In this document: positions 1,907 to 42,818 of the stretch, in pieces
How the letters are laid out: each line of letters begins with the position of its first letter
How positions within the stretch are numbered: position 1 is the first letter of the stretch
From: Bacteroidia bacterium
Lineage (GTDB): Bacteria; Bacteroidota; Bacteroidia; M30B66
Direction: 5' to 3'
Length of the DNA: 64,000 bases
NCBI GenBank assembly: GCA_965279035.1
Contig: OZ257142.1
Coordinates: 3,456,001 to 3,520,000 of the forward strand
Translations under genes and position numbers: made by a program
Notes under the pieces: generated by a model
Seen by the model: only the letters and a program-made list of their open reading frames with translations
Databases searched by the model: none
What the model was told of the DNA's origin: nothing

Positions 1907-2164
1907 TTACAAATATTTTTTGGCAATTGCATCTGTAAGTTCTTTCTTGTAATCAAAATCTTTTGGTAATTTAAATGAACCTCGTAATTGCTTTACAGTT
2001 GGACTCAAATCTTTATCATCAATCTCCTTTTCATTAGTTAAAGCTTTAAGATAATTTTCTATTAGGTCAGACAGACTTCTTTCCCGTTCCCGCGCATATC
2101 TTTTAGCCTTCTCAATTATTGATTGCTCAATCGTAAGCGTTAGTTTCGTATTCATAACCTTCAT
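1907..2164 (-). CDS. Antitoxin, RHH-like (DUF6364-like)
   Basis: TKLTLTIEQSIIEKAKRYA...SLSDLIENYL directly upstream of the PIN gene. Confidence 0.8.
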   Translation of the reverse strand: MKVMNTKLTLTIEQSIIEKAKRYARERERSLSDLIENYLKALTNEKEIDDKDLSPTVKQLRGSFKLPKDFDYKKELTDAIAKKYL

Positions 2165-2305
2165 TTTTCACAAAAGTAATAAAATTTTCAATATACACGT
2201 GCAAATATATCCAAATGAATACGTGTCGTTTGTTGGTGATTTCCGCTAACCTTTAGACTTGCAGTCAAAGATTTTAGCTGATAAATTTACCATAAATAAA
2301 TGTAG

Positions 2306-2457
2306 TTAACCGAAAGCAGGGCGACCTATGCGCTAACAAGGATAATAGGCCTATGGAACGATATAGTGCCCTACTTTCTGGTTATTTAAGCCTCAGATAG
2401 ATATTCGGGATTCAGGCCCATTATAAAGGTTTTGAGGTACAAATAACCATTGGTTAA
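2306..2457 (+). ncRNA. Predicted IS110 bridge RNA (same offset in all 7 copies)
   Basis: Two stem-loops with internal loops: CGCTAAC (2331-2337) and GGAACG (2355-2360) match the target; ATAGATAT (2397-2404) and TAAAGG (2424-2429) match the IS circle junction. Confidence 0.8.
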
Positions 2458-2480
2458 TCCGTTTTGCTAATTATAAAATT

Positions 2481-3494
2481 ATGAATTCAAACCAGAACAA
2501 CCAAAAACATTTTGTAGGAACAGATGTTTCAAAAGAAACACTTGATGTAACGATCTTTTTCAACTCCTCAATGCATTTTCATCAGCAATTTTCAAATGAC
2601 AGCAAGGGCTTTAAGCAATTGCTGAAATGGCTAGAAACCTATCCTGAATTCAGTTTTGAAAATACTTTATTCTGCATGGAACATACAGGAATTTACACTC
2701 GTCAGTTTGTTGAATTCCTCCTTTCGAAAGAAGCAAAGGTATGGATGGAGTCGGCACTGCATTTAAAGCGTTCTATGGGCATGACAAGGGGCAAAAGTGA
2801 TAAGATCGATTCACTGCGAATTGCACGCTATGCAATGACTCATCAGGACCAAGCCAGGCTCGTAAATCTTTCCAATAAAACATTGTTGCTTATCAAAGAC
2901 CTTATGAGTGCAAGAGAGCGGAGTAAAAAGGCCTACCAGTCCATAAAAGTCTCCATTGATGAAATGCAAAGAGTCGATGCAGCAACAGCAAAAGAGCTCT
3001 TGAGGATTAATAAACCAGCCCTTTCTGGATTATTGAAAAGCAAGATGGCGTTGGAAAAACGGATGATGGAATTAATAGCGATGGATCCTGAACTGAACGA
3101 GCTATTTGAGCTGGTTACTTCTGTCAAAGGTGTGGGTAATGTATTGGCAACCGAACTGATTGTTTATACACATGCATTTAAAAGAATGGATGAAGCCAAA
3201 CAACTGGCCTGCTATTGCGGAGTCGCTCCTTTTTCTCATACTTCCGGCACGAGTGTGCATGGAAGAAATGGAACTTCAAACTTTGCTAACATGGGACTTA
3301 AATCAACTTTACACTTGGCTGCACTTTCTTCAATTCGTTACGTACCTGAGCTTAAAACATATTATCAGAGGAAAGTAGCTGAGGGAAAATCCAAAATGAG
3401 CGTAATTAATGCCGTGCGGAATAAACTGTTGCAACGTGTCTTAGCAGTGGTAAAAAGAGGAACGCCTTACCAAGAAAATTATCAAGTAAATTAA
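2481..3494 (+). CDS. IS110 recombinase/transposase
   Basis: DEDD RuvC-like motifs GTDVSK, MEHTG, KSDKID; C-terminal HTSGTS serine motif. Confidence 0.95.
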   Translation: MNSNQNNQKHFVGTDVSKETLDVTIFFNSSMHFHQQFSNDSKGFKQLLKWLETYPEFSFENTLFCMEHTGIYTRQFVEFLLSKEAKVWMESALHLKRSMGMTRGKSDKIDSLRIARYAMTHQDQARLVNLSNKTLLLIKDLMSARERSKKAYQSIKVSIDEMQRVDAATAKELLRINKPALSGLLKSKMALEKRMMELIAMDPELNELFELVTSVKGVGNVLATELIVYTHAFKRMDEAKQLACYCGVAPFSHTSGTSVHGRNGTSNFANMGLKSTLHLAALSSIRYVPELKTYYQRKVAEGKSKMSVINAVRNKLLQRVLAVVKRGTPYQENYQVN

Positions 3495-3515
3495 TTTGGA
3501 AAACTCATAGATATC

Positions 3516-3640
3516 GTTCCGCACACACCTGAAGAGCCAAATGAGATGAACGAAATGCTTTATATTAGACGAATATAACAAGAAAAACGAATGCCTCATA
3601 CTCCCGAAATGCTTGGCTTTGCTGGTGTGTGCTGTTAGCT
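3516..3640 (-). repeat. attC-like site A, disrupted by IS110
   Basis: GTTCCGCACACACC...GGTGTGTGCTGTTAGC; its TAAC end lies at 2247-2250. Confidence 0.9.
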
Positions 3641-3645
3641 GTAGT

Positions 3646-4287
3646 TTATTTATTACTCCAGAATTCTTCAGTTAAATAAAAAACAGTGTCAATAAAATAA
3701 AGGACATTATTTCTAGTCAACACATTTTCATCATGCAAATCTTCGAGTATAATTCCTAAATTTTGATTAAAGTAATCGTTGTTTCTAGTATTTTGAAATC
3801 CATTTGAAGTCAAAAACTCTTTTAATTGATTTAAATCTGTATTACTTGTTATTGTAACATATGATTGTTGAACAACAGCATAAAGAATTTCATTCTCCTT
3901 GGTAAATCCAAGCAATTCATATGCAGTATCTTCAAAAAAAAAATTATGAATCAACAAATTATAAAAGTAATCTCTCCAACTGCTATAATAAATTCCATCA
4001 TTTAACTTTAAAACATGATCAGAGTTTTTGAGATACACTCTTTGCTCTGCTCCTTCACTTACATACTGAGTAAAATCAATATCAGATATCCAAAGCTTAT
4101 TTTCTGAAACAAAGATTTCTAATCTCTTTGCTTCTTGTTCTTTGAATTGCTTTGAGTTTTCAATTTTTGAGCCTGGTTGCGAGCCTTTGCTAAGGTAACT
4201 GGCGACTGATTGGATAGTTGTTCCAAACCTAACTTGGCTCTTTCCTGAAATGACATCATAAAGTTCTTGTTTAAGTTGGTCTTGCAT
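3646..4287 (-). CDS. Kinase-fold protein, polyvalent-protein kinase (kinase-PolyVal-like)
   Basis: GAEQRVY, VLK, EDLHDENV, FID kinase-like motifs. Confidence 0.65.
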   Translation of the reverse strand: MQDQLKQELYDVISGKSQVRFGTTIQSVASYLSKGSQPGSKIENSKQFKEQEAKRLEIFVSENKLWISDIDFTQYVSEGAEQRVYLKNSDHVLKLNDGIYYSSWRDYFYNLLIHNFFFEDTAYELLGFTKENEILYAVVQQSYVTITSNTDLNQLKEFLTSNGFQNTRNNDYFNQNLGIILEDLHDENVLTRNNVLYFIDTVFYLTEEFWSNK

Positions 4288-4353
4288 TAAAGCAAAGATA
4301 AGAAATGATTTTATAAGTCGGAATGCTTGTTTATCAGCGATTTACTAAATTAC

Positions 4354-4485
4354 AGCTAACGTTTCGGGGGTTTGCGATGGCGGGGAGTTTTAGCACTAAA
4401 CTTCATTCGGAGAACTGAACTTCCACTAACCACAAATGTGTCTGCGAAGCACGGAACCCCCGCTATCGCAAACCCCATGTTAGCG
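4354..4485 (-). repeat. attC-like site, family D
   Basis: CTAAC-GTTTC-GGGGTTTGCGATGGCGGGG...CCCCGCTATCGCAAACCCC-AT-GTTAG. Confidence 0.9.
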
Positions 4486-4589
4486 GATGCCCTTCTTCCC
4501 ATTCCACGAAGGTATGCACTTTATTTTGTCGCACAATTGTCTGATTAAATTTTTTGTCGTCAAAAGTTGTCAGCAAGTAACCACACAAA

Positions 4590-4620
4590 AAATAAGCAGG
4601 GGTGGCGAAGCCACCCCTGC
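4590..4620 (-). terminator. Likely intrinsic terminator downstream of viperin
   Basis: GCAGGGGTGGC-GAA-GCCACCCCTGC hairpin followed by a T-rich tract on the minus strand. Confidence 0.55.
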
Positions 4621-4872
4621 CTTTACTACTTGTCTTTTCCCTTTGGCGGCACAGGAGGCTGCTGTTTAGGGTCAAGTTGTTTGCCTCTGTTACCTTGATT
4701 TTTGTCATAGGTTTCGTTTGTGCCAGAGGTCCCTTTGTTCGGATTTTTTATGTCCGCTTCGTGATTTTTTTCTTTCTCACTCATTGTTTTTGGATTTAAC
4801 TGTGATGCTTCAATTTCTGCGTTTCTGCTTCCGCCCCTTAGTTTTAGTTGGACTTCGGTTTAACCAATATTT

Positions 4873-5739
4873 TTAGTTAACCGTTGTCCAGTTGTAGATG
4901 CCGCCTCTTGAAACAAACTTTGAAAAGTCGTAGCTCATTTGCTGAATAGCAAGTCTTGCCCCGATGTCTAAAATTGGTTTGCTGTAAATGTGTCCGCCTG
5001 TTGTGTTGTCGTAAAACCTGCCTGCTGGGTCAACCATAGCATAAGAACCAGTCATTTGATTGTTGTTCTCGGGAACTATGCTTGTAATGTCCAGAAGTCC
5101 TTTGTGGTTATCAATAAAAAATTGAAATTGCTCGTTTGTGATTTTGAATTTGTCAATGTTCAAATCGTTCTGTCCTTTCATTGGCAAAACTTGGAATAGT
5201 TTCCATCGTTTTGGTTTTGCATAACGGATAAACTCGCTCAAGTTTTCGTTGCAGTTCTTGCTACTTACAACTGTATTTATTTTTAGTCCATAACCGTGTT
5301 CTTTTATTCTGTCAACAAGCGAAGTGTAGTAGTCAATTTGTAAAGGTGTCTTGCCCGAAATTGCTCTGCCGGTTTCAATGTTTGTGTTAGCGTTTAAACT
5401 GTCAATGCTTACGGAAATCCAGTCAAGGTGCTGCTGATTAGCTTGCAAAAAACTGTCAGTAAGTTTACTGCCGTTGCTCACAATCATTGTTGTAAGTCCT
5501 GCTTGCTTGGCGGTTGTAATTAAATCGGGAAGCCAAGGGCAAAGAGTTGGTTCGCCTCCTGCGAAAGTGATTTTCTCAAAGCCAATTTCAGCAAGATGAA
5601 GGACTACTTCAATTGCTTGTTCTTTTGGTAAATGTCCTTTTGGTAAAATGCTTTGCTTAACATCTTGAAAGGTTGCGAAGCAAAACTTGCAACGCATGTT
5701 GCATGGCTCCCATAAATGAAAATTGACTGCTGGAATCAT
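4873..5739 (-). CDS. Prokaryotic viperin (radical SAM, antiviral ddhNTP synthase)
   Basis: VNFHLWEPCNMRCKFCF (CX3CX2C), KITFAGGEP, SYAMVDPAGRF, FVSRGGIYNW viperin-like motifs. Confidence 0.88.
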   Translation of the reverse strand: MIPAVNFHLWEPCNMRCKFCFATFQDVKQSILPKGHLPKEQAIEVVLHLAEIGFEKITFAGGEPTLCPWLPDLITTAKQAGLTTMIVSNGSKLTDSFLQANQQHLDWISVSIDSLNANTNIETGRAISGKTPLQIDYYTSLVDRIKEHGYGLKINTVVSSKNCNENLSEFIRYAKPKRWKLFQVLPMKGQNDLNIDKFKITNEQFQFFIDNHKGLLDITSIVPENNNQMTGSYAMVDPAGRFYDNTTGGHIYSKPILDIGARLAIQQMSYDFSKFVSRGGIYNWTTVN

Positions 5740-7380: not shown

Positions 7381-8645
7381 CTTTAGACTTGCAGTCAAAG
7401 ATTTTAGCTGATAAATTTACCATAAATAAATGTAGTTAACCGAAAGCAGGGCGACCTATGCGCTAACAAGGATAATAGGCCTATGGAACGATATAGTGCC
7501 CTACTTTCTGGTTATTTAAGCCTCAGATAGATATTCGGGATTCAGGCCCATTATAAAGGTTTTGAGGTACAAATAACCATTGGTTAATCCGTTTTGCTAA
7601 TTATAAAATTATGAATTCAAACCAGAACAACCAAAAACATTTTGTAGGAACAGATGTTTCAAAAGAAACACTTGATGTAACGATCTTTTTCAACTCCTCA
7701 ATGCATTTTCATCAGCAATTTTCAAATGACAGCAAGGGCTTTAAGCAATTGCTGAAATGGCTAGAAACCTATCCTGAATTCAGTTTTGAAAATACTTTAT
7801 TCTGCATGGAACATACAGGAATTTACACTCGTCAGTTTGTTGAATTCCTCCTTTCGAAAGAAGCAAAGGTATGGATGGAGTCGGCACTGCATTTAAAGCG
7901 TTCTATGGGCATGACAAGGGGCAAAAGTGATAAGATCGATTCACTGCGAATTGCACGCTATGCAATGACTCATCAGGACCAAGCCAGGCTCGTAAATCTT
8001 TCCAATAAAACATTGTTGCTTATCAAAGACCTTATGAGTGCAAGAGAGCGGAGTAAAAAGGCCTACCAGTCCATAAAAGTCTCCATTGATGAAATGCAAA
8101 GAGTCGATGCAGCAACAGCAAAAGAGCTCTTGAGGATTAATAAACCAGCCCTTTCTGGATTATTGAAAAGCAAGATGGCGTTGGAAAAACGGATGATGGA
8201 ATTAATAGCGATGGATCCTGAACTGAACGAGCTATTTGAGCTGGTTACTTCTGTCAAAGGTGTGGGTAATGTATTGGCAACCGAACTGATTGTTTATACA
8301 CATGCATTTAAAAGAATGGATGAAGCCAAACAACTGGCCTGCTATTGCGGAGTCGCTCCTTTTTCTCATACTTCCGGCACGAGTGTGCATGGAAGAAATG
8401 GAACTTCAAACTTTGCTAACATGGGACTTAAATCAACTTTACACTTGGCTGCACTTTCTTCAATTCGTTACGTACCTGAGCTTAAAACATATTATCAGAG
8501 GAAAGTAGCTGAGGGAAAATCCAAAATGAGCGTAATTAATGCCGTGCGGAATAAACTGTTGCAACGTGTCTTAGCAGTGGTAAAAAGAGGAACGCCTTAC
8601 CAAGAAAATTATCAAGTAAATTAATTTGGAAAACTCATAGATATC
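7381..8645 (+). mobile_element. IS110 copy 2
   Basis: Same ends and length as copy 1, same target position. Confidence 0.95.
7611..8624 (+). CDS. IS110 recombinase
   Basis: Protein identical to 2481..3494. Confidence 0.95.
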   Translation: MNSNQNNQKHFVGTDVSKETLDVTIFFNSSMHFHQQFSNDSKGFKQLLKWLETYPEFSFENTLFCMEHTGIYTRQFVEFLLSKEAKVWMESALHLKRSMGMTRGKSDKIDSLRIARYAMTHQDQARLVNLSNKTLLLIKDLMSARERSKKAYQSIKVSIDEMQRVDAATAKELLRINKPALSGLLKSKMALEKRMMELIAMDPELNELFELVTSVKGVGNVLATELIVYTHAFKRMDEAKQLACYCGVAPFSHTSGTSVHGRNGTSNFANMGLKSTLHLAALSSIRYVPELKTYYQRKVAEGKSKMSVINAVRNKLLQRVLAVVKRGTPYQENYQVN

Positions 8646-9582: not shown

Positions 9583-9960
9583 GATGCGCGCCAAGTCCGA
9601 TTCAGTTCTAGCAAAGTTTCCAAGCAAAAAAAGCGACTTGAATACACATTCTGAAATAAGGCCAAAAACCATTCTGCAAATATTCTGTGTTTGTCGCCAT
9701 CAATTCTCTAGTTGATTTCATCAATCCATTAATTTGATTTTATCAGCAGTTCATTCCAGGCATATGGCGACAAACTTTTCAAAAACCTCTCAAATGGTTT
9801 TTGCCTATCCCTCAAATGCCGAGCTTTTTTTATCAAAAACGATTAGACATTCGTTTATTACTTTATTGTTTCCTGATAGCCGAAACTTCCTTTCGCCTTT
9901 AATGAATTATCTGACCACAATGCGAATGGCGAGTTTGGAAAATTTCGCGTTTCAAATAAC
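9576..9960. repeat. Non-coding cassette family X, copy 1
   Basis: 385 bp, four copies in window, ends GTTATTTGATGCGCG...CGCGTTTCAAATAAC. Confidence 0.9.
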
Positions 9961-10085
9961 GTTCCGCACACACCTGAAGAGCCAAACGACGTGAACGGAT
10001 AGCTTTAGATTAGACGAATATAACAAGAAAAACGAATGCCTCAAACTCCCGAAATGCTTGGCTTTGCTGGTGTGTGCTGTTAGCG
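9954..10085 (-). repeat. attC-like site A, intact
   Basis: Family A sequence. Confidence 0.9.
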
Positions 10086-10663: not shown

Positions 10664-11928
10664 CTTTAGACTTGCAGTCAAAGATTTTAGCTGATAAATT
10701 TACCATAAATAAATGTAGTTAACCGAAAGCAGGGCGACCTATGCGCTAACAAGGATAATAGGCCTATGGAACGATATAGTGCCCTACTTTCTGGTTATTT
10801 AAGCCTCAGATAGATATTCGGGATTCAGGCCCATTATAAAGGTTTTGAGGTACAAATAACCATTGGTTAATCCGTTTTGCTAATTATAAAATTATGAATT
10901 CAAACCAGAACAACCAAAAACATTTTGTAGGAACAGATGTTTCAAAAGAAACACTTGATGTAACGATCTTTTTCAACTCCTCAATGCATTTTCATCAGCA
11001 ATTTTCAAATGACAGCAAGGGCTTTAAGCAATTGCTGAAATGGCTAGAAACCTATCCTGAATTCAGTTTTGAAAATACTTTATTCTGCATGGAACATACA
11101 GGAATTTACACTCGTCAGTTTGTTGAATTCCTCCTTTCGAAAGAAGCAAAGGTATGGATGGAGTCGGCACTGCATTTAAAGCGTTCTATGGGCATGACAA
11201 GGGGCAAAAGTGATAAGATCGATTCACTGCGAATTGCACGCTATGCAATGACTCATCAGGACCAAGCCAGGCTCGTAAATCTTTCCAATAAAACATTGTT
11301 GCTTATCAAAGACCTTATGAGTGCAAGAGAGCGGAGTAAAAAGGCCTACCAGTCCATAAAAGTCTCCATTGATGAAATGCAAAGAGTCGATGCAGCAACA
11401 GCAAAAGAGCTCTTGAGGATTAATAAACCAGCCCTTTCTGGATTATTGAAAAGCAAGATGGCGTTGGAAAAACGGATGATGGAATTAATAGCGATGGATC
11501 CTGAACTGAACGAGCTATTTGAGCTGGTTACTTCTGTCAAAGGTGTGGGTAATGTATTGGCAACCGAACTGATTGTTTATACACATGCATTTAAAAGAAT
11601 GGATGAAGCCAAACAACTGGCCTGCTATTGCGGAGTCGCTCCTTTTTCTCATACTTCCGGCACGAGTGTGCATGGAAGAAATGGAACTTCAAACTTTGCT
11701 AACATGGGACTTAAATCAACTTTACACTTGGCTGCACTTTCTTCAATTCGTTACGTACCTGAGCTTAAAACATATTATCAGAGGAAAGTAGCTGAGGGAA
11801 AATCCAAAATGAGCGTAATTAATGCCGTGCGGAATAAACTGTTGCAACGTGTCTTAGCAGTGGTAAAAAGAGGAACGCCTTACCAAGAAAATTATCAAGT
11901 AAATTAATTTGGAAAACTCATAGATATC
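10664..11928 (+). mobile_element. IS110 copy 3
   Basis: Same ends, length and target. Confidence 0.95.
10894..11907 (+). CDS. IS110 recombinase
   Basis: Identical protein. Confidence 0.95.
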   Translation: MNSNQNNQKHFVGTDVSKETLDVTIFFNSSMHFHQQFSNDSKGFKQLLKWLETYPEFSFENTLFCMEHTGIYTRQFVEFLLSKEAKVWMESALHLKRSMGMTRGKSDKIDSLRIARYAMTHQDQARLVNLSNKTLLLIKDLMSARERSKKAYQSIKVSIDEMQRVDAATAKELLRINKPALSGLLKSKMALEKRMMELIAMDPELNELFELVTSVKGVGNVLATELIVYTHAFKRMDEAKQLACYCGVAPFSHTSGTSVHGRNGTSNFANMGLKSTLHLAALSSIRYVPELKTYYQRKVAEGKSKMSVINAVRNKLLQRVLAVVKRGTPYQENYQVN

Positions 11929-14834: not shown

Positions 14835-14889
14835 AATATTCTTGTTGTTTTATCTATTTGATGGTCGTGGTGCCAGTCTTTACAATGAC

Positions 14890-15022
14890 CGCTAACGCTC
14901 CGCGTGCAACTCGAGGTTTGGGAATTGGTGAACTGAATGCTTTAGATTAGACGAATATAGCAAGAAAATTGAAATGTTTTAACCAAGCAAAATGCCCAAA
15001 TCTTGAGTGCACGCTGTTATTT
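14890..15022 (-). repeat. attC-like site, family B
   Basis: TAAC-GCTCC-GCGTGCAACTCGAGGTTTGGG...CCCAAATCTTGAGTGCACGC-T-GTTA. Confidence 0.9.
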
Positions 15023-15400
15023 GATGCGCGCCAAGTCCGATTCAGTTCCAGCAAACTTTCCAAGCAAAAAAAGCGACTTGAATACACATTCTGAAATAAG
15101 GCCAAAAACCATTCATCAAATTATCAATGTTTGTCGCCATCAATTCTCAAGTTGATTTCATCAATCCATTAACTTGATTTCATCTACAGTTCATTCCAGG
15201 CATATGGCGACAAACTTTTCAAAAACCTCTCAAATGGTTTTTGCCTTTCCCTCAAATGCCGAGCTTTTTTTATCAAAAACGATTAGACATTCGTTTATTA
15301 CTTTATTCTTTCCTGATAGCCGAAACTTCCTTTCGCCTTTAATGAATTATCTGACAATAATGCGAATGGCGTGTTTGGAAAATTTCGCGTTTCAAATAAC
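15016..15400. repeat. Non-coding cassette X, copy 2
   Basis: Highly similar to 9576-9960. Confidence 0.9.
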
Positions 15401-15525
15401 GTTCCGCACACACCTGAAGAGCCAAACGAGGTAAACGAAATGCTTTAGATTAGACGAATATAACAAGAAAAACGGATGCCTCAAACTCCCGAAATGCTTG
15501 GCTTTGCTGGTGTGTGCTGTTAGCC
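15394..15525 (-). repeat. attC-like site A, intact
   Basis: Family A sequence. Confidence 0.9.
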
Positions 15526-17170: not shown

Positions 17171-18435
17171 CTTTAGACTTGCAGTCAAAGATTTTAGCTG
17201 ATAAATTTACCATAAATAAATGTAGTTAACCGAAAGCAGGGCGACCTATGCGCTAACAAGGATAATAGGCCTATGGAACGATATAGTGCCCTACTTTCTG
17301 GTTATTTAAGCCTCAGATAGATATTCGGGATTCAGGCCCATTATAAAGGTTTTGAGGTACAAATAACCATTGGTTAATCCGTTTTGCTAATTATAAAATT
17401 ATGAATTCAAACCAGAACAACCAAAAACATTTTGTAGGAACAGATGTTTCAAAAGAAACACTTGATGTAACGATCTTTTTCAACTCCTCAATGCATTTTC
17501 ATCAGCAATTTTCAAATGACAGCAAGGGCTTTAAGCAATTGCTGAAATGGCTAGAAACCTATCCTGAATTCAGTTTTGAAAATACTTTATTCTGCATGGA
17601 ACATACAGGAATTTACACTCGTCAGTTTGTTGAATTCCTCCTTTCGAAAGAAGCAAAGGTATGGATGGAGTCGGCACTGCATTTAAAGCGTTCTATGGGC
17701 ATGACAAGGGGCAAAAGTGATAAGATCGATTCACTGCGAATTGCACGCTATGCAATGACTCATCAGGACCAAGCCAGGCTCGTAAATCTTTCCAATAAAA
17801 CATTGTTGCTTATCAAAGACCTTATGAGTGCAAGAGAGCGGAGTAAAAAGGCCTACCAGTCCATAAAAGTCTCCATTGATGAAATGCAAAGAGTCGATGC
17901 AGCAACAGCAAAAGAGCTCTTGAGGATTAATAAACCAGCCCTTTCTGGATTATTGAAAAGCAAGATGGCGTTGGAAAAACGGATGATGGAATTAATAGCG
18001 ATGGATCCTGAACTGAACGAGCTATTTGAGCTGGTTACTTCTGTCAAAGGTGTGGGTAATGTATTGGCAACCGAACTGATTGTTTATACACATGCATTTA
18101 AAAGAATGGATGAAGCCAAACAACTGGCCTGCTATTGCGGAGTCGCTCCTTTTTCTCATACTTCCGGCACGAGTGTGCATGGAAGAAATGGAACTTCAAA
18201 CTTTGCTAACATGGGACTTAAATCAACTTTACACTTGGCTGCACTTTCTTCAATTCGTTACGTACCTGAGCTTAAAACATATTATCAGAGGAAAGTAGCT
18301 GAGGGAAAATCCAAAATGAGCGTAATTAATGCCGTGCGGAATAAACTGTTGCAACGTGTCTTAGCAGTGGTAAAAAGAGGAACGCCTTACCAAGAAAATT
18401 ATCAAGTAAATTAATTTGGAAAACTCATAGATATC
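17171..18435 (+). mobile_element. IS110 copy 4
   Basis: Same ends, length and target. Confidence 0.95.
17401..18414 (+). CDS. IS110 recombinase
   Basis: Identical protein. Confidence 0.95.
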   Translation: MNSNQNNQKHFVGTDVSKETLDVTIFFNSSMHFHQQFSNDSKGFKQLLKWLETYPEFSFENTLFCMEHTGIYTRQFVEFLLSKEAKVWMESALHLKRSMGMTRGKSDKIDSLRIARYAMTHQDQARLVNLSNKTLLLIKDLMSARERSKKAYQSIKVSIDEMQRVDAATAKELLRINKPALSGLLKSKMALEKRMMELIAMDPELNELFELVTSVKGVGNVLATELIVYTHAFKRMDEAKQLACYCGVAPFSHTSGTSVHGRNGTSNFANMGLKSTLHLAALSSIRYVPELKTYYQRKVAEGKSKMSVINAVRNKLLQRVLAVVKRGTPYQENYQVN

Positions 18436-18572: not shown

Positions 18573-19280
18573 TCAATTGTCTATTGGTTTGTCAAGTTTT
18601 CTGAAATTCCAATTCTTTTTAATTGTCTTTCCTGTCGCAAATTCATTTAGCCATACATCTTTAAATTTTGGGTTTAAATAGGTGTTGTCGGGCAAATAAG
18701 TTAGAATATGCTGTGAGGACAAATAGAACTGAATAAAGTTTCCAATATCTGGCCTATAGAAATTACCTAATATACCTATGCTGTCTTTTAAATCGCATAG
18801 ATATTTGAATTTTTCAAACGGATCGTTTGTCGCAAACAATTCATTTAAGGGAATATTTTGAACAATGATTTGGCTTTGTCCGTAATTATCAACAGTCGAG
18901 ATGCGGACAGATTCATTTTTAAATTTAGTAAAGTCAACTTCGTAAAATTTTGAAGTATCAATTTGTATGTTGCAAGGAAAGTCTTTTTTGAAGTTCTCGA
19001 AACGACTTATTGAAAGTTTGATACTGTCAATGTTGTTAAAATAAAAACAACTGTAACTATAAAAACCGCTGTCTGGGTTGTCCGAGTGTTTGGTAAAAAT
19101 ATCTGCTTCACCACGATGTCCAAAACCCCATTCATAAAATGTCTTAATATTAATTCTATCAAGTTTATCGGTAATATTCAGAGCTTTATCTTTAATATTA
19201 TTATCCGAAAATTTAGAGTTCGAACAAGCAAATAATGCAGTCAGAATAATAAAGGTCAATATTGTCGTGTAATGTTTCAT
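18573..19280 (-). CDS. Hypothetical lipoprotein
   Basis: LFAC lipobox; fills the cassette. Confidence 0.7.
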   Translation of the reverse strand: MKHYTTILTFIILTALFACSNSKFSDNNIKDKALNITDKLDRINIKTFYEWGFGHRGEADIFTKHSDNPDSGFYSYSCFYFNNIDSIKLSISRFENFKKDFPCNIQIDTSKFYEVDFTKFKNESVRISTVDNYGQSQIIVQNIPLNELFATNDPFEKFKYLCDLKDSIGILGNFYRPDIGNFIQFYLSSQHILTYLPDNTYLNPKFKDVWLNEFATGKTIKKNWNFRKLDKPIDN

Positions 19281-19289
19281 TATGCTTGC

Positions 19290-19420
19290 CTATAACGCTC
19301 CGCAGCTATCGGCTGAACCGGAGAACGGAACGTGATGCTTTAGATTATACGAATGTAATATAGAATTACCAATGTATCAACTTACCCAAATGCCGGTTTT
19401 GCCGATAGCTGCTGTTATAC
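19290..19420 (-). repeat. attC-like site, unique variant
   Basis: TAAC-GCTCC-GCAGCTATCGGC...GCCGATAGCTGC-T-GTTA. Confidence 0.9.
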
Positions 19421-19519
19421 GCTGCCAAGATTTTCGCTCGGAGTTTGTCAGCCCAGAATTCGTATAAAGGATGTTCAAAGTGATTTACATTCATTGATAT
19501 GTCGGTCTGGGTTTGCATT

Positions 19520-22317: not shown

Positions 22318-23582
22318 CTTTAGACTTGCAGTCAAAGATTTTAGCTGATAAATTTACCATAAATAAATGTAGTTAACCGAAAGCAGGGCGACCTATGCGC
22401 TAACAAGGATAATAGGCCTATGGAACGATATAGTGCCCTACTTTCTGGTTATTTAAGCCTCAGATAGATATTCGGGATTCAGGCCCATTATAAAGGTTTT
22501 GAGGTACAAATAACCATTGGTTAATCCGTTTTGCTAATTATAAAATTATGAATTCAAACCAGAACAACCAAAAACATTTTGTAGGAACAGATGTTTCAAA
22601 AGAAACACTTGATGTAACGATCTTTTTCAACTCCTCAATGCATTTTCATCAGCAATTTTCAAATGACAGCAAGGGCTTTAAGCAATTGCTGAAATGGCTA
22701 GAAACCTATCCTGAATTCAGTTTTGAAAATACTTTATTCTGCATGGAACATACAGGAATTTACACTCGTCAGTTTGTTGAATTCCTCCTTTCGAAAGAAG
22801 CAAAGGTATGGATGGAGTCGGCACTGCATTTAAAGCGTTCTATGGGCATGACAAGGGGCAAAAGTGATAAGATCGATTCACTGCGAATTGCACGCTATGC
22901 AATGACTCATCAGGACCAAGCCAGGCTCGTAAATCTTTCCAATAAAACATTGTTGCTTATCAAAGACCTTATGAGTGCAAGAGAGCGGAGTAAAAAGGCC
23001 TACCAGTCCATAAAAGTCTCCATTGATGAAATGCAAAGAGTCGATGCAGCAACAGCAAAAGAGCTCTTGAGGATTAATAAACCAGCCCTTTCTGGATTAT
23101 TGAAAAGCAAGATGGCGTTGGAAAAACGGATGATGGAATTAATAGCGATGGATCCTGAACTGAACGAGCTATTTGAGCTGGTTACTTCTGTCAAAGGTGT
23201 GGGTAATGTATTGGCAACCGAACTGATTGTTTATACACATGCATTTAAAAGAATGGATGAAGCCAAACAACTGGCCTGCTATTGCGGAGTCGCTCCTTTT
23301 TCTCATACTTCCGGCACGAGTGTGCATGGAAGAAATGGAACTTCAAACTTTGCTAACATGGGACTTAAATCAACTTTACACTTGGCTGCACTTTCTTCAA
23401 TTCGTTACGTACCTGAGCTTAAAACATATTATCAGAGGAAAGTAGCTGAGGGAAAATCCAAAATGAGCGTAATTAATGCCGTGCGGAATAAACTGTTGCA
23501 ACGTGTCTTAGCAGTGGTAAAAAGAGGAACGCCTTACCAAGAAAATTATCAAGTAAATTAATTTGGAAAACTCATAGATATC
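22318..23582 (+). mobile_element. IS110 copy 5
   Basis: Same ends, length and target. Confidence 0.95.
22548..23561 (+). CDS. IS110 recombinase
   Basis: Identical protein. Confidence 0.95.
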   Translation: MNSNQNNQKHFVGTDVSKETLDVTIFFNSSMHFHQQFSNDSKGFKQLLKWLETYPEFSFENTLFCMEHTGIYTRQFVEFLLSKEAKVWMESALHLKRSMGMTRGKSDKIDSLRIARYAMTHQDQARLVNLSNKTLLLIKDLMSARERSKKAYQSIKVSIDEMQRVDAATAKELLRINKPALSGLLKSKMALEKRMMELIAMDPELNELFELVTSVKGVGNVLATELIVYTHAFKRMDEAKQLACYCGVAPFSHTSGTSVHGRNGTSNFANMGLKSTLHLAALSSIRYVPELKTYYQRKVAEGKSKMSVINAVRNKLLQRVLAVVKRGTPYQENYQVN

Positions 23583-24752: not shown

Positions 24753-27700
24753 CTATTGTCCTTCAATTATTTTCTGTTCTTCTGGTGTAATGTCGTAAAG
24801 CTTATAAACTAATTGGTCAATTTTCCTTTCAAGGTCGGTAGTTGAAGTTCCTTTTTTGCTTATTATTTTTCTACCAAATCTATAAATGGTTGTTGTTCTG
24901 TTGGGCTAATTTTTTTAACAGGAATTTCTGTCAGTGGTGTATAATACAACTCTAAACTTTCTCCTTTTCTTTTGCCTTTATTGTAAAGCCAAAAGAAGTA
25001 AAGTTTTGAATTTAACAATGCAAGAATATATTTGAGACTAAAGTCTTTTTTTGCATTGGTTATATAGTAAACATCTGCACTAGAATACCATATACTATTG
25101 TTGTAACCAAAAACATTCGATTTAGTCCTTTGAGGGCAAACAATTTTTTCACCTTCAAAAACTGATTTTGTTCTTGCTGCAAAAATAACCCACCATTTAC
25201 CAAGTTTTACTGCCGCTTGCATTTCTCCTCTTTCTTGGCTTCTGTTTTTTATTACAGCCTCAAACTTTTCAAAATGTTTTTTAATTGTTGGATAATTTCC
25301 TATTTAAATATCCCTTGTTGCATATATTACTTGATACTTTGATTCATCAGAAGTCCAATATTTGTGAATGTCAGAGTTCTTAAACCAAGGTCTAATTAAT
25401 TCTAATTCTTGTTTTGAAAATTTTTTATTATTTACTTCTTCATTTGTAAGAACATAAACACCTTGATTGATATTTTCAACTTGTGTTAGTTCATTTTCAA
25501 TATGCTTATTTGAAATTCTATCCACGCCACTTAAAATTCCTTGACTAATGTCACAAATTTCAATTAACGGAGTTCCTTGATCAATTATTTTATTGAAAAT
25601 TGAATTATCTTTAGTAGAATTTTCTTTATTTCCTAAGCCCTGTAAGCGGATATAATTGTTTGTCGTTTCATATAGTTCAGTTTGTGGTGCTAAATAAATT
25701 TTTGAATTTTCGTTCTGTGCTGAGATAACTTTATCAAACAGTTCTTGATTACAGTCGCCAGTTTCAGATGTTACAAGATTATGTGCTAGTGAAGTAGCAT
25801 TTATTCCTTTGGTTAAAAATGTTATTAAGTTATGTTGACCTTTAGCAGATTCAAATATTCTTAGCTCATTCAAATTAACTAAACCGTTTATAGTTGCACT
25901 ATTTTTAAAGTCGGTTCGTAAATTTTCACCTCCGTCACTTGTTAAATAGTAGTTTGTTGTGATGTAAGCCAGTTTCCCATTTTCTTTAAGCAATTGCAGT
26001 CCCAAATGAAAAAAGAAATAAAATATATCCATTTTCCTTTGATAAAAATTTGCAAGGTTGCCTTGGCGAATAATTCTGAATACTTCTTTATGACCTTTTT
26101 CTCCGATGTATGGTGGATTTCCAATTATAGCGTCAAAGCCTTCAAATTCGCCATTATTATTAAGAACTTCTGGAAATTCAAATCGCCATTCAAATGCACT
26201 TTTATAGATTACGTTATTTTTTATTTCCTCAATTTCTTTGGAAAGAATATTGATGTCAGCTTCTAATTTTATTTGATTATCCTTTTGTATCTTTTTCTGT
26301 TTACTATCAAGTTCAAATAATTTTCCTTGATTTAGCAAATTAAAAAGGTCTCCGCTAAGTTTTCTGAGTTTAATTTGTTTGGGGTCATTGTTGCCAATTT
26401 CAGTTCGAAAATCAGATTTAATACTGTCAATGATTTTTTGCAAACCTCTTTTAACATCACGACTTTTTTCGTTTTTGTAATCGTTTACAAATCCTCTGTA
26501 TGCTTTTACATCGTATTTGATGCTTTTCAAAGCTTTGCTTAAATCTGAATCAAACGTAAACCTACTTAACAAACTATTTCCACATTTAATATTGATGTCA
26601 ATATTTGGAAGTGTTTCAAGTTCAGCATAATTCGTTTCTGCTTTGTAATAAGCATTTTTTAAAAGCTCTATCCACAAACGTAAACGGCAAATTTTTACGG
26701 AGTTTGGATTGATATCAACGCCAAACAAGCAGTTTTCGATTATTGTTTGCTTTTCGTGGAAAAGTGTTTTTTGAATCCTATTGCTTTCTTTATTTAATGG
26801 ATTGTATGCAAAAATGTTGCTGTTTTCATCAGTAATAATAAGTTCATCATTTATTATTTCAATTTCATAATCTCTAAGAGTTTTCCCTTTCTCGTCCATT
26901 AGTATACCGAGTTCACTTTTTACCGCTATTATTTCGTTAAGTGCAGAAACTAAAAAGTGACCAGAGCCGACTGCTGGGTCGCAAATTTTAATTGAATTAA
27001 TTATTTCGTTTGCTTCTTTTTTGTCTTCAATTTTATTGTAAAGTTCATCGAATTGCTTAATGTTCCATTTTTTATTTACATTGAATTTCTCAACAACAGC
27101 AAGGCGAATTGATTGTTTACACATATACATCGTGATAAATGCTGGCGTGAAAATCGAACCGTCTTTGTAACCATTAATTTTTTCAAATACTTTACCAAGA
27201 ACCGAGGCATTAATAATTGTTTTATTGTCTTCTTGAACATCTTCAGTTCCTTCACTTGCAAAGTCGTAAGCATCTAAAAACTGAAAAAGATAATCCAAAG
27301 TGGGCAGCGAAGCTGCCTTCTTTTTTGTATCTTTTAATATTGTTGTTCCAATTATTTCAAGTTGTCCGTTGTTATCAAGTGAATTTATTTTAATCGTTAA
27401 GTCTTCTAATTCGCTTATCTCAAAAAGTGAACTATTTAAGTATGGAACTTTGCTATACTTAATTTTAATTGCATCAGTTCTTTCTGTTAGATTTATAGCT
27501 AAAACTTTATGAAACAGTTTAAACAATTCATCAAAATCATTTATCATTGATGAATTTAGGAAGCGATACTCCTTATTACCTTGATGATAAGTTATGAGTT
27601 GACCTTCTAATAATTTTAGAAACAGGATTCTGTTTATCCAAGTAATACAAAGCTCAAGCGAAATATTATATATCCTTTCTTCTTTATTTTCTCCATATAA

Positions 27701-28621
27701 AGATTGGTCGGGAATTCTATGTAAAACATCTTCTGTATTTAATGCTTCTATAGTTGCTTCAAAAAGTGAAGCTAGGTTCCGGTTTTCTTTTTTACGCCTA
27801 ATTATATTCCTACCACCTTCCTTAACTTCTTCAAGTCCGATTATGTGAAGTAGTTCTCTATAGAACTTTTCGTTAAGAGAGTTACTATCGTTTGGTGTTG
27901 CTACTTTTAATAAGTGTGTTGGTGAAAGAATTTTGAATAATGCAATTAATTCTTTGTCGTCCTCTTTATTGTTGTTTCTTAAAACCTTATCATATTCTCT
28001 GATGTCGAAGTAAACACAAGGTATTTCAACTTCAATTTTGGCAACTATTTTGGCTATTTCTTCATAAAAAAACGGGTTATCTTTTTTGTCGTTGAGTTTG
28101 GTTTCGTATAGTTTTTTTATTTGTGTATTTCGGTAAATATGTTTGTCGAAATAATTTGCGTCAATAATAAACCATTGGTTTACATTGGTCATTACCAACT
28201 GTTTTAGTTGGTTGTTTCCTGCTTGGTTTCTCTCGTCTAAGTAATAAAGTATAAGTTCGTGAAGTGCTTTTTTGTTAGGGTTGTCAGCCGTTACCATTTC
28301 ACCAATATTGGTAGGCCGTTTGGCTTCTATAATTACTCCAACCTCGCTGTCAGTTGTCTTGCCGAGATGAATTACAAGGTCTTTTTTGTCTTTGGTGTTG
28401 ATTGCGTTGGTGTCACGATAGTATGTGTCCCGCAGAAAGTCACGTAAGTCGTTTTTTAAATGTTCTTCACTTTCGTCTTTAGGTCGTTTTTCTATAACGC
28501 TGATTTTGTCGAGTAAAGCAATGAGGTTTGTTTTAAAAACGTCAATTTCGCTTCTCAAAGGTTTTTGCTTTAAGAAGGCTTTTAGTGCTTTTTTCGGTGT
28601 TTGCGTTATTAGTTTCATCAA
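24753..28621 (-). pseudogene. Type IIG restriction-modification enzyme (Eco57I/TaqI_C-like), with nonsense codon at 25304-25306 and frameshift near 24866
   Basis: IIEAK nuclease motif, DPAVGSGHF motif I, GNPPY motif IV; reading continues in frame after TAA; terminal IDQLVYKLYDITPEEQKIIEGQ lies in a shifted frame. Confidence 0.85.
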
Positions 28622-28869: not shown

Positions 28870-30134
28870 CTTTAGACTTGCAGTCAAAGATTTTAGCTGA
28901 TAAATTTACCATAAATAAATGTAGTTAACCGAAAGCAGGGCGACCTATGCGCTAACAAGGATAATAGGCCTATGGAACGATATAGTGCCCTACTTTCTGG
29001 TTATTTAAGCCTCAGATAGATATTCGGGATTCAGGCCCATTATAAAGGTTTTGAGGTACAAATAACCATTGGTTAATCCGTTTTGCTAATTATAAAATTA
29101 TGAATTCAAACCAGAACAACCAAAAACATTTTGTAGGAACAGATGTTTCAAAAGAAACACTTGATGTAACGATCTTTTTCAACTCCTCAATGCATTTTCA
29201 TCAGCAATTTTCAAATGACAGCAAGGGCTTTAAGCAATTGCTGAAATGGCTAGAAACCTATCCTGAATTCAGTTTTGAAAATACTTTATTCTGCATGGAA
29301 CATACAGGAATTTACACTCGTCAGTTTGTTGAATTCCTCCTTTCGAAAGAAGCAAAGGTATGGATGGAGTCGGCACTGCATTTAAAGCGTTCTATGGGCA
29401 TGACAAGGGGCAAAAGTGATAAGATCGATTCACTGCGAATTGCACGCTATGCAATGACTCATCAGGACCAAGCCAGGCTCGTAAATCTTTCCAATAAAAC
29501 ATTGTTGCTTATCAAAGACCTTATGAGTGCAAGAGAGCGGAGTAAAAAGGCCTACCAGTCCATAAAAGTCTCCATTGATGAAATGCAAAGAGTCGATGCA
29601 GCAACAGCAAAAGAGCTCTTGAGGATTAATAAACCAGCCCTTTCTGGATTATTGAAAAGCAAGATGGCGTTGGAAAAACGGATGATGGAATTAATAGCGA
29701 TGGATCCTGAACTGAACGAGCTATTTGAGCTGGTTACTTCTGTCAAAGGTGTGGGTAATGTATTGGCAACCGAACTGATTGTTTATACACATGCATTTAA
29801 AAGAATGGATGAAGCCAAACAACTGGCCTGCTATTGCGGAGTCGCTCCTTTTTCTCATACTTCCGGCACGAGTGTGCATGGAAGAAATGGAACTTCAAAC
29901 TTTGCTAACATGGGACTTAAATCAACTTTACACTTGGCTGCACTTTCTTCAATTCGTTACGTACCTGAGCTTAAAACATATTATCAGAGGAAAGTAGCTG
30001 AGGGAAAATCCAAAATGAGCGTAATTAATGCCGTGCGGAATAAACTGTTGCAACGTGTCTTAGCAGTGGTAAAAAGAGGAACGCCTTACCAAGAAAATTA
30101 TCAAGTAAATTAATTTGGAAAACTCATAGATATC
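28870..30134 (+). mobile_element. IS110 copy 6
   Basis: Same ends, length and target. Confidence 0.95.
29100..30113 (+). CDS. IS110 recombinase
   Basis: Identical protein. Confidence 0.95.
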   Translation: MNSNQNNQKHFVGTDVSKETLDVTIFFNSSMHFHQQFSNDSKGFKQLLKWLETYPEFSFENTLFCMEHTGIYTRQFVEFLLSKEAKVWMESALHLKRSMGMTRGKSDKIDSLRIARYAMTHQDQARLVNLSNKTLLLIKDLMSARERSKKAYQSIKVSIDEMQRVDAATAKELLRINKPALSGLLKSKMALEKRMMELIAMDPELNELFELVTSVKGVGNVLATELIVYTHAFKRMDEAKQLACYCGVAPFSHTSGTSVHGRNGTSNFANMGLKSTLHLAALSSIRYVPELKTYYQRKVAEGKSKMSVINAVRNKLLQRVLAVVKRGTPYQENYQVN

Positions 30135-30259
30135 GTTCCGCACACACTTGAAGTGCCAAATGAAATGAGCAGAATGCTTTAGATTAAACGAAAGTAACAA
30201 AGAAAACGGATGATTCAATACAGCGGAAAGCTTGGCATTTCTAGTGTGTGCTGTTAGCA
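30135..30259 (-). repeat. attC-like site A (diverged), IS110-disrupted
   Basis: GTTCCGCACACACTTG...CTAGTGTGTGCTGTTAG with compensatory changes. Confidence 0.88.
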
Positions 30260-30292
30260 GATGTGCCTAAACTAAAATCTAATCATGATAAA

Positions 30293-30324
30293 GTTTGCAA
30301 TTTGAAAACATTTGATTACTTTTG
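30293..30324 (+). promoter_or_regulatory. higBA promoter and operator
   Basis: TTTG(30294)-19 nt-TACTTTTG(30317) Bacteroidota consensus; imperfect palindrome GTTTGCAA-T-TTGAAAAC. Confidence 0.6.
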
Positions 30325-30328
30325 CCTT

Positions 30329-30655
30329 GTGAAAGTTCTTGTCAAGAAAACGATTCTATTTTATATCAAAAAATATCCAATGGCTGAAACTCAGCTAATG
30401 ATTTGGTATACGGAATTTTCAAGACATCAATTTTCTAATTTCAATGAACTTAAAAAGGTTTATGGAAATGCTAGCATTGTCAATAATAATAGAGTTGTTT
30501 TCAATATTAAAGGCAATGACTTTAGATTGGTAATTTCAATAAACTTTTTACAAGCTGCATCTTATGTGATTTGGTTTGGAACTCATAAAGAATATGATAA
30601 AATTGATGTTCAAACTATTTCTTTCGACACAGCCATTCTAACAAATAAAAAGTGA
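30329..30655 (+). CDS. higB: HigB toxin
   Basis: ELKKVYGNASIVNNNRVVFNIKGNDFRL...FGTHKEYDKID; likely GTG start. Confidence 0.9.
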   Translation: MKVLVKKTILFYIKKYPMAETQLMIWYTEFSRHQFSNFNELKKVYGNASIVNNNRVVFNIKGNDFRLVISINFLQAASYVIWFGTHKEYDKIDVQTISFDTAILTNKK

Positions 30656-30659
30656 AACT

Positions 30660-31016
30660 ATGAATTGGAAAGTATTGAAAACTGAAGACGATTATAACAA
30701 AGCTTCAATTCGTATGATGGAAATATTTCATGCTGAGCCTAATACTCCTGAAAAAGATGAATTAGACCTGTTGCTTTTGCTTGTAAAAGATTTTGATGAC
30801 AAACATTATCAATTACCAGAGCTTGATGCATTGGAAGTCATTAAATACAAAATGAAAGAAAAAGGAATGAAAGCAAAAGATCTAGAGCCGATAATTGGAA
30901 GCAAAGGTCATGTTTCTGCAATTCTTTCTGGTAAACGTGAGATTACATTAAAAATGGCTCAAAAGCTGAAAAATTACTTTAGCCTTCCAGCTGAAGTTTT
31001 CTTGCATGGTGCTTAA
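30660..31016 (+). CDS. higA: HigA antitoxin (HTH)
   Basis: LKTEDDY...DELDLL...KDLEPIIGSKGHVSAILSGKREIT. Confidence 0.9.
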   Translation: MNWKVLKTEDDYNKASIRMMEIFHAEPNTPEKDELDLLLLLVKDFDDKHYQLPELDALEVIKYKMKEKGMKAKDLEPIIGSKGHVSAILSGKREITLKMAQKLKNYFSLPAEVFLHGA

Positions 31017-33529: not shown

Positions 33530-33883
33530 ATGGAAACAAAGAAAAAACAAACGACCGAGAATTACATTAAAGAAATCCGCAGAAAGACAAGAAGAATTTT
33601 CAGTTCAGAACAGAAGATCCAGATAGTTATGGAGGCATTGCGTGCTGAATTGTCAGTAGCAGAATTGTGTAGGAAGTATTCTATACAGGAGAGTCAATTT
33701 TATAAATGGAATAAGGAGTTTTTGGAAGCAGGTAAGAAGCGTCTCTCCGGTGATGTAACCCGCGAAGCTACGAGTGATGAAGTGTCAGAGCTTCGCAAAG
33801 AAAATCAGCGCTTAAAGGAAATGGTCGCTGATTTGGTTTTGCGCTATGACATTGTAAAAAAAAGCTTGTCCATGCTGGATTAA
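33530..33883 (+). CDS. IS3 OrfA
   Basis: HTH, A7G slippery site near the 3' end. Confidence 0.9.
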   Translation: METKKKQTTENYIKEIRRKTRRIFSSEQKIQIVMEALRAELSVAELCRKYSIQESQFYKWNKEFLEAGKKRLSGDVTREATSDEVSELRKENQRLKEMVADLVLRYDIVKKSLSMLD

Positions 33884-33903
33884 CTGTAAAACTGAAAAAA
33901 TAT

Positions 33904-42798: not shown

Positions 42799-42818
42799 AT
42801 ATTTTTTCAGTTTTACAG

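Follow-up and report, generated by a model that had tools for sequence, protein, structure and literature searches.

Does the left end of an IS110-family insertion sequence (IS) from a Bacteroidia bacterium encode a bridge RNA, and, if it does, what kind of site does that RNA select? The element lies at 2251–3514 on the + strand of a 64,000-nucleotide (nt) stretch of contig OZ257142.1 (the window, that is, the whole stretch of DNA that was analyzed), and the interval in question, 2306–2457, lies within its left end. Published bridge RNAs occupy the left end of IS110-group elements, have two internal loops, and are predicted in 85.7% of catalogued IS110 elements, according to extracts of PMC11208160; an RNA of this kind is therefore already known. 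We consider it highly probable that 2306–2457 is the bridge RNA (seekRNA) of this IS110-group element, with two modules inside a common outer stem. Its anatomy, its conservation, the covariation of its guides with flanking DNA, and the empty sites of the element are observed, and they identify a genuine bridge RNA that is a variant of the known system.

2251 to 3514, + strand: IS copy 1, 1264 bp, plus one C common with the target, at 2250 or 3515
2306 to 2457, + strand: bridge RNA core, an outer stem around target- and donor-binding modules; the covariance model match spans 2303 to 2465
2481 to 3494, + strand: recombinase gene, 337 aa, with a DEDD RuvC-like domain and a Tnp domain

The borders of the IS can be placed independently of the guides, from seven identical copies, their diverging left flanks, and five empty sites. 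All seven copies in the window are on the + strand, with 0 differences over 1264 nt.

7381 to 8644, + strand: IS copy 2, identical, matched by the RNA covariance model
10664 to 11927, + strand: IS copy 3, identical, matched by the RNA covariance model
17171 to 18434, + strand: IS copy 4, left flank GGCTAAC, right flank CGTTTC
22318 to 23581, + strand: IS copy 5, left flank GTATAAC
28870 to 30133, + strand: IS copy 6, left flank ACCTAAC
37238 to 38501, + strand: IS copy 7, left flank GCATAAC

The left flank is CGCTAAC in three copies and differs in the four for which it is listed above, the divergence starting upstream of TAAC. Every copy has as its right flank a repeat of about 125 nt that starts with CGTTCC (CGTTTC in one copy). 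Five close copies of this repeat in the window are unoccupied, all with the sequence xxxTAAC|GTTCC, and all seven insertions are at sites of this type. None of the seven shows terminal inverted repeats or a target duplication beyond one C.

2244 to 2250, + strand: left target half-site CGCTAAC, the final C being the common core base; same as the guide at 2331–2337
3507 to 3514, + strand: ATAGATAT, left donor half-site at the right end of the IS; same sequence as the left donor guide (2397–2404)
58092 to 58103, + strand: unoccupied target site GGCTAAC|GTTCC, the empty site of a close repeat
1356 to 1367, 9954 to 9965, 15394 to 15405, and 48424 to 48435: the other empty close-repeat sites

The RNA itself can be divided into two modules, which are enclosed by an outer stem of TTAACC (2306–2311) and GGTTAA (2452–2457).

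2312 to 2378, + strand: target-binding module, with a stem, two guides, an inner hairpin, and handshake bases
2380 to 2448, + strand: donor-binding module, with two stems, two guides, an inner hairpin, and handshake bases

The target module is closed by GAAAGCAGGGC (2312–2322) and GCCCTACTTTC (2368–2378), which pair with a single C·A mismatch. On the 5' side of its internal loop lies the left target guide CGCTAAC (2331–2337), and a short hairpin (AGG 2339–2341, CCT 2350–2352) parts the two sides of the loop; the right target guide GGAACG (2355–2360) is followed by the handshake bases ATAT (2361–2364). The stems of the donor module are GGTTATTT (2380–2387) with AAATAACC (2441–2448) and CCTCA (2391–2395) with TGAGG (2433–2437). 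They enclose the left donor guide ATAGATAT (2397–2404), an inner hairpin (GGG 2407–2409, CCC 2417–2419), and the right donor guide TAAAGG (2424–2429), which is followed by the handshake bases TT (2430–2431). The right junction of the inserted element, ATATCGTTCC (3511–3520), is the exact reverse complement of GGAACGATAT, which consists of the right guide of the target loop and ATAT, and the left junction, AACCTTTA (2248–2255), is the exact reverse complement of TAAAGGTT, which consists of the right guide of the donor loop and TT. An initial annotation made from the sequence alone had described this two-loop anatomy, and every string that it named was found in its place, to the base. It had also equated CGCTAAC with the left flank, the left donor guide with the IS right end, and the extended right guides with the reverse complements of the two junctions, and these identities are exact. 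RNAfold reproduced the two-module layout at −50.9 kcal/mol (z = −3.16), and 0 of 200 shuffled sequences were equally stable.

We next consider whether the structure is conserved. The database held 4728 relatives of the recombinase at E up to 0.001, among 6462 candidates, and the named ones among them are annotated as IS110-family transposases from Bacteroidia or Chitinophagaceae. One genome per species was scanned, which yielded 326 confirmed loci, and the best 80 of these (41–73% identity; designated by L numbers) were used; 79 of the 80 are titled as Bacteroidota taxa, and L059 is titled Candidatus Nomurabacteria. The initial annotation had proposed a covariance model over homologs, with guide/flank covariation, as a check. 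Such a model (R1) was built from eight sequences, those of the window and seven close relatives, with the structure taken from that annotation, and it matched directly upstream of the recombinase open reading frame (ORF), on the same strand, at 73 of the 80 loci and at all seven window copies. Four of the seven misses have less than 200 nt of upstream sequence (L042, L052, L070, and L080), L063 gave a partial match, and L024 and L048 have lost the left end. When 71 distinct rows were aligned, 89.7% of cells were paired, versus 30.8–47.4% with slid partners, and 34 of 34 base pairs were altered on both sides by compensatory changes, although the alignment was fitted to R1, which favors the structure. 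RNAalifold, applied to an independent MAFFT alignment of eight sequences, gave the same helices with eight compensatory pairs. Compensatory change in all 34 pairs indicates that the region acts as a folded single strand.

The protein encoded downstream is of the expected type. The 337-aa ORF matched PF01548 (DEDD_Tnp_IS110) with 68.5 bits (cut-off 29) and PF02371 (Transposase_20) with 70.5 bits (cut-off 21.3). A profile of 26 relatives matched IS621 (8wt6, chain 8wt6_A) and ISCro4 (9t56) over nearly the full length (E = 2.5e-30), and this match, together with the conserved structure of the RNA, bears out the IS621-type layout that had been annotated. D15, E67, D107, D110, and S255 are invariant in the 26 relatives and align to the DEDD and Ser catalytic residues of IS621, as these are named in the extracts of PMC11208158. 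The recombinase had also been called compact, a description that does not set it apart: the IS621 chain in the PDB has 328 residues, and a length of 337 aa is therefore ordinary.

If the loops are guides, they should follow the DNA that they are proposed to recognize, and we compared them with it in the relatives. Junctions were placed by motifs at the IS ends (C[CT]TTAG on the left, CATAGA[AT][AT]N on the right) and not by the guides. Three loci (L010, L076, and L014) have two left motifs each, and the one preceding sequence like that of related IS ends was picked by hand; at L078, a wrong automatic right junction was exchanged for the first motif 3' of the ORF. L031 and L012, which have mutated right ends, were kept in the permutation counts, as was L001, and rows without flank sequence were excluded (10 of 80 on the left, 12 of 80 on the right). 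The right target guide matched its own right flank at a mean of 5.37 of 6 positions, with a perfect match in 33 of 65 rows and at least five matches in 58 of 65; when the flanks were permuted among rows, the mean was 3.12 (standard deviation 0.12), and 0 of 10,000 permutations reached the observed value. For the left target guide, the mean was 5.48 of 7 (perfect in 16 of 67 rows), compared with 4.51 (standard deviation 0.084) after permutation, and the observed mean was again reached in 0 of 10,000.

These matches involve many different sequences. There are 35 distinct classes of right guide, 22 of which (counted by reading the list) have at least one perfectly matching flank; the guide/flank pairs include GGAACG/CGTTCC, CAAACG/CGTTTG, AAAACG/CGTTTT, AGACCG/CGGTCT, GCCAGG/CCTGGC, and TATTTG/CAAATA. 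Left guides that differ from the common CGCTAAC are identical to their own flanks, for instance GACAAGC (L059), CACCAAC (L060 and L072), CTCCAAC (L065), TGCAGTC (L067), CACGAAC (L079), CACCGGC (L078), and TGCAATC (L066 and L077). In the donor loop, the left guide agrees with the IS right end at 8 of 8 bases in 30 of 37 distinct rows, with five covarying variants (ATAGATAT, ATAGATTT, ATAGAAAT, ATAGAATT, and ATAGAAAA). The left target, right target, and left donor guides thus covary with their DNA partners in relatives. For the right donor guide no covariation can be expected, given that the IS left end hardly varies.

In IS621, each right guide is followed by two bases that, once the top strands have been exchanged, pair with positions 6–7 of the other DNA, and pairing of the handshake bases with the cognate DNA blocks the reaction (extracts of PMC11208158). 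The initial annotation had noted handshake-like pairing in the window element, and the relatives agree. Rows were admitted to this comparison if the right guide matched its flank at 4 or more of 6 positions (target loop, 59 rows) or 3 or more of 4 (donor loop, 65 rows). The handshake pair of the target loop, which is formed by the two bases after the G that pairs with the core, matched the donor end in 48 of the 59 rows and never matched the cognate target; for the pair of the donor loop, a match to the target end was seen in 60 of the 65 rows and a match to the cognate donor in one. Much of this agreement is conservation (AU, UU), with variant classes that track their partners (AA, UA, UU; AU, AC).

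The handshake positions start immediately beside a single C, and this C is all that donor and target have in common, in the whole family. The conclusion, which coincides with the earlier reading of the window element, rests on the five empty sites and on the junctions of 61 relatives for which all four half-sites are available: C is present at the left junction in 60 of 61 and at the right junction in 59 of 61, and donor and target have the same base before the C in 5 of 61 rows and the same base after it in 5 of 61. All seven window insertions retain the target A at the left junction and the donor T at the right junction, which is the pattern that top-strand products alone would give. Its presence in 7 of 7 suggests that the crossover region is at most one base, or that resolution is directional. 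At one related locus, L014, the left junction (1177) reads ...CATAAT|CTTTAG, with T in place of the common C; the left guide of this locus has a U, and the right junction keeps the C. The core base may have changed naturally on one side here, or a G·U pair may be tolerated.

By homology to IS621, we infer production of the RNA, its binding by the protein, a circular intermediate, and the chemistry of the reaction, and the element would then work as follows. The RNA would be made from the IS left end, upstream of the recombinase gene, and would fold into two modules. In the target loop, the left half-site would be read through its bottom strand by CGCTAAC and the right half-site through its top strand by GGAACG. 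The donor loop would do likewise with the ends of the element: ATAGATAT(U) would pair with the IS right end on its bottom strand, and (UA)AAGG, reaching over the circle junction, with the IS left end on its top strand. AUAU and UU, after the right guides, would find their complement only in the other DNA partner, in other words in the recombination product, and this handshake would favor strand exchange. The exchange itself, at the single C common to donor and target, would be carried out by a tetramer of the DEDD/Ser recombinase. The natural target would be the ...TAAC|G... end of a repeated hairpin, which would explain why the seven copies have the same orientation and the same place in seven repeats. 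Expression and activity of the RNA, and its programmability, are likewise predicted.

The repeat that serves as the target was analyzed across the window.

3515 to 3640, + strand: hairpin repeat of about 125 nt, attC-like, opening with the right target half-site CGTTCC (3515–3520)
1363, 3516, 8646, 9961, 11929, 15401, 18436, 23583, 30135, 38503, 48431, and 58099, + strand: starts of the close repeats
14927, 19323, 31082, 46311, 47398, 59811, and 60379, + strand: starts of the divergent repeats
14886 to 15030, 19280 to 19430, 46270 to 46410, 47360 to 47490, 59770 to 59910, and 60340 to 60480, + strand: six unoccupied divergent repeats with CGCTCC

The 12 close copies, none of which would be expected by chance, were supplemented by seven divergent ones in a profile search, giving 19 sites between 1363 and 60472, all on the + strand. 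The repeats fold as long hairpins in which TAAC is paired with GTTA. The conserved parts are the ends (xxxTAAC-G(C/T)TCC and GC-TGTTAxxx) and a stretch in the center; the arms differ between copies and stay complementary (GCACACACC/GGTGTGTGC, GCGTGCAACTC/GAGTGCACGC, and GCAGCTATCGG/CCGATAGCTGC). Sites with CGTT(C/T)C are occupied in 7 of 13 cases and sites with CGCTCC in 0 of 6 (hypergeometric P = 0.034), and two of the six CGCTCC repeats carry a perfect CGCTAAC left half-site and are still unoccupied. A single mismatch two bases from the common C may therefore be enough to exclude insertion.

The genes between repeats are mostly on the − strand, and most repeats lie immediately beyond the stop of one such gene or of a group of them. 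Units at 1482–2164, 3646–5739, 24863–28621, and 30248–31016 carry genes of the defense or addiction type: a PIN toxin with a DUF6364 partner, a HigB toxin with an HTH (helix-turn-helix) partner, a radical SAM enzyme, a Kinase-PolyVal protein, and a 1105-aa restriction-modification enzyme of the MmeI/Eco57I type, which is accompanied by a TaqI_C specificity ORF. Many other ORFs of the inter-repeat units match no family.

Several findings weigh against a bridge RNA of the known kind at 2306–2457. The CT core dinucleotide, which defines IS621-like elements, is absent and a single C takes its place; extracts of PMC11208158 describe CT as highly conserved in IS621 and related orthologs, with T9 almost invariant. 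An Rfam search of 2000–3800 (E up to 10) found no related family; its six matches were at chance level (E ≥ 2.2) and far below gathering scores. The match of the left guide to the left flank is loose, the occupied window sites agreeing with it at 4 to 7 of 7 positions, and the aligned rows are phylogenetically related, which makes the permutation results counts and not probabilities. Only the AAGG part of TAAAGG, the right donor guide of the initial annotation, is kept as pairing among relatives, and its second base pairs in just 15 of 40 distinct rows. In L024 and L048 (1180–1510), the gene and right end are intact and unrelated DNA replaces the left end, leaving no bridge RNA; these are presumably dead copies or depend on RNA supplied in trans. 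The right ends of L001 and L002 are aberrant. That of L001 (about 2500–2530) reads CATAGATAA and then TCGGG, and its flank mismatches its guide; L002 has no recognizable right end downstream of 2173 and has a longer ORF (382 aa).

The data on expression and on a circular form are also sparse. A search of sequencing runs identified two lake metatranscriptomes in which small shares of the element were present and, from a single organism, four runs containing nearly all of it (0.99–1.00 of the sampled words). Four runs, the RNA libraries X1 and X2 and two DNA runs, were compared with the window, all as contigs. The sole RNA-library signal over the RNA was one 151-nt contig from the lake metatranscriptome X2, which covers 2300–2450, the predicted RNA and nothing else, at a depth of 2.3 with two differences; a 750-nt contig from X1 covers 3262–3522 and then continues into unlike sequence. 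Contigs from RNA libraries cannot show transcription, ends, or strand, and uncovered parts prove nothing; the 2300–2450 contig is a weak hint of the RNA and may be DNA carry-over or come from a relative. No contig joined 3514 to 2251 in the two DNA runs, which is not evidence of absence as contigs drop rare forms, and the single joint found in the runs, 3648 to 2239, is not the circle junction. In a scan of 2200–2520 we found no sigma-70-type promoter and no simple terminator. That interval contains a sequence, TAAATTTA, that resembles the Bacteroides −7 element, the consensus of which we take to be TAnnTTTG.

2282 to 2289, + strand: candidate Bacteroidota-type −7 promoter box TAAATTTA; TAnnTTT(G/A) is kept here in the left ends of eight close relatives

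In the DNA runs, the word depth of the IS contig was about 10 times that of the unique left flank (1117 versus 100 in X3 and 7167 versus 548 in X5, over 2247–3528), and the recombinase protein cluster has 28 member sequences on one 4.2-Mb contig. Together, these values hint at many IS copies genome-wide, word depth not being the same as copy number.

The position of the structured stretch immediately upstream of the ORF, the lone weak metatranscriptome contig behind RNA production, and the lack of a sigma-70 promoter in 2200–2520 would all be compatible with a cis-acting leader or with DNA sites for the transposase, acting in translational control or end recognition, in which case the likeness between loops and flanks would reflect repeats at the DNA level. 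We regard this as very improbable, since the compensatory changes in 34 of 34 pairs point to a folded single strand, and the loops covary with host DNA that differs among elements and lies outside them. Moreover, the pattern of sense and antisense guides and the non-cognate handshake reproduce the solved scheme of IS621. A still simpler idea, to which we give almost no credence, is that the guide/flank matches arose by chance or that the true IS extends further and takes in the 125-nt repeat, as the similar right flank of all seven copies might suggest. An IS that includes the repeat was rejected, as 12 copies of the repeat (5 close, 7 divergent) carry no IS and the repeats differ while the IS copies are identical; chance was rejected because the matches recur with different sequences in relatives, beyond 10,000 permutations. 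A further alternative concerns the nature of the target.

The array of repeats resembles an integron-type cassette array, or else a group of attC sites, in which the sites are unusually long and the units hold several genes; no integrase was found in the window. Integron integrases cut the folded bottom strand at the C of AAC. Alternatively, the repeats may be intergenic hairpins like repetitive extragenic palindromic (REP) sequences or miniature inverted-repeat transposable elements, or terminator-linked repeats, and the element may be a REP-targeting IS110 like IS621. For this alternative speak the absence of a tyrosine recombinase among the 47 window ORFs scanned with Pfam (46 of at least 110 aa and the 85-aa ORF at 1907–2164) and the size of the inter-repeat units, which reach about 9.5 kb with several genes each. 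The repeats also have a conserved center of about 45 nt with variable arms and a one-sided spacer between the terminal and inner stems (5 nt versus 1 nt), and in both respects they are unlike classical attC sites. On the other hand, 19 of 19 repeats have one orientation, most just after the stop of a − strand gene or group, their ends read xxxTAAC...GTTAxxx with covarying arms, and the units carry toxin-antitoxin, restriction-modification, and other accessory genes. In addition, two relatives, L089 and L090 (records titled Pontibacter saemangeumensis and Rufibacter immobilis), have a homologous IS at the same AAC|G end of one ~65-nt AAC...GTT hairpin in an array, where the hairpins follow small − strand ORFs and the IS lies 2.7–3 kb from a tyrosine recombinase gene that resembles integron integrases and is oriented like the cassettes.

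L089, 15004 to 16482, − strand: tyrosine recombinase, 492 aa; TIGR02249 204.5 bits, NF040815 205.5 bits
L090, 15898 to 17343, − strand: tyrosine recombinase, 481 aa; TIGR02249 219.5 bits, NF040815 225.5 bits

Both proteins have an N-terminal extension of ~210 aa, and their best models are of the integron-integrase and XerA types, with scores just below or at the cut-offs (265 for TIGR02249, integron integrase, which matched in two stretches, and 220 for NF040815, tyrosine recombinase/integron integrase). By analogy with the IS1111-family elements ISKpn4 and ISPst6, we read the IS clade as attC-targeting. For the 125-nt repeats of the window itself, an attC-like identity is the reading we lean toward, and a REP-like one is a serious competitor that we hold to be somewhat short of an even chance. 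Our tentative proposal, which may well be wrong, is that the bridge RNAs of an IS110-type clade in Bacteroidota are fixed on the recombination point of integron-type attC hairpins (AAC|G), with a one-base core replacing CT.

Another type of IS is also present in the window. Two inverted IS3-type copies, at 33530–34920 (+ strand) and 41782–43172 (− strand), each have an HTH_Tnp_1 ORF and an rve ORF with identical Pfam scores. They enclose ~6.9 kb with type IX secretion-sorted proteins, IS110 copy 7, one hairpin repeat, and a DDE_Tnp_1 gene (39030–40196), in an arrangement that resembles a composite transposon; an additional partial IS3-type element lies at 3–1090. The type IX secretion sorting domains of window proteins fit a Bacteroidota host.

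Most IS110 elements are predicted to encode a bridge RNA, a kind of molecule known since 2024, and finding one is not surprising. The value of this locus lies in the 64-kb natural record that it provides, with 7 identical insertions, 5 cognate and 7 near-cognate empty sites, and in about 70 relatives with reprogrammed guides, a clade in which many orthologs with natural guide variants are available for testing. A single common base whose neighbor is used as a handshake position bears on the crossover length that is required and on where the strands are cut. If the proposal is correct, the one-base core would represent a bridge recombinase with a laxer site requirement than IS621, and such elements would colonize cassette arrays in one orientation, each insertion splitting the cassette hairpin from its terminal box and perhaps freezing cassette shuffling. 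The window would then be part of an unusually large Bacteroidota cassette array with 125-nt attC sites and multi-gene units. A target at an attC-like crossover end would mean that attC targeting, known from the IS1111 group, also occurs in the IS110 group, and it would link bridge recombinases with integron-like arrays in a phylum in which integrons are reported to be rare (PMC9024848).

We searched the literature for precedents. No paper was found that pairs "single-nucleotide core" or "mononucleotide core" with bridge RNA, and among the papers listed, titles and abstract starts described no attC-targeting IS110-type element of Bacteroidota, neither of which is proof of absence. A link between bridge RNA and attC was found only in PMC11208160, and Supplementary Table 5 of that paper, or the IS110 database of its authors, may already list the clade. 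According to extracts of PMC11187229, elements of the IS1111-attC group (ISKpn4 and ISPst6) are DEDD-family ISs that are guided by RNA to one end of attC and lie in one orientation within cassette arrays, as proposed here. They differ in having the RNA downstream of the gene, subterminal inverted repeats, and seekRNAs whose strand-matching regions are in reverse order relative to the IS110 type, whereas the RNA of our element is upstream, as in the IS110 type. ISPpu10 is similar in being an IS110 element that targets copies of an intergenic repeat, with a stem-loop beside the paired site, and differs in its Pseudomonas host (extracts of bioRxiv 10.64898/2026.03.19.712850).

The closest comparison is with IS621 and ISCro4 (IS622), as described in extracts of PMC11208160, PMC11208158, and bioRxiv 10.1101/2025.05.14.653916. 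Like them, the element has a DEDD and Ser recombinase of similar size, an RNA encoded in its left end, two internal loops in which the left guide has the sense of the top strand and the right guide is complementary to that strand, handshake bases whose partner after exchange is the non-cognate DNA, and insertion into a repeated hairpin element. It differs from them in several respects. The protein similarity is remote, the structures having been found by profile search only; one common C replaces CT, and the adjacent base serves as a handshake position; an outer stem closes both modules in a three-way junction; the handshake stretch of the target loop is longer (4 nt in the window element); the target is attC-like; and the hosts are Bacteroidota, with no sigma-70 promoter found in 2200–2520. 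Apart from the CT core, the defining features of the IS621 bridge system that can be read from sequence are present at this locus.

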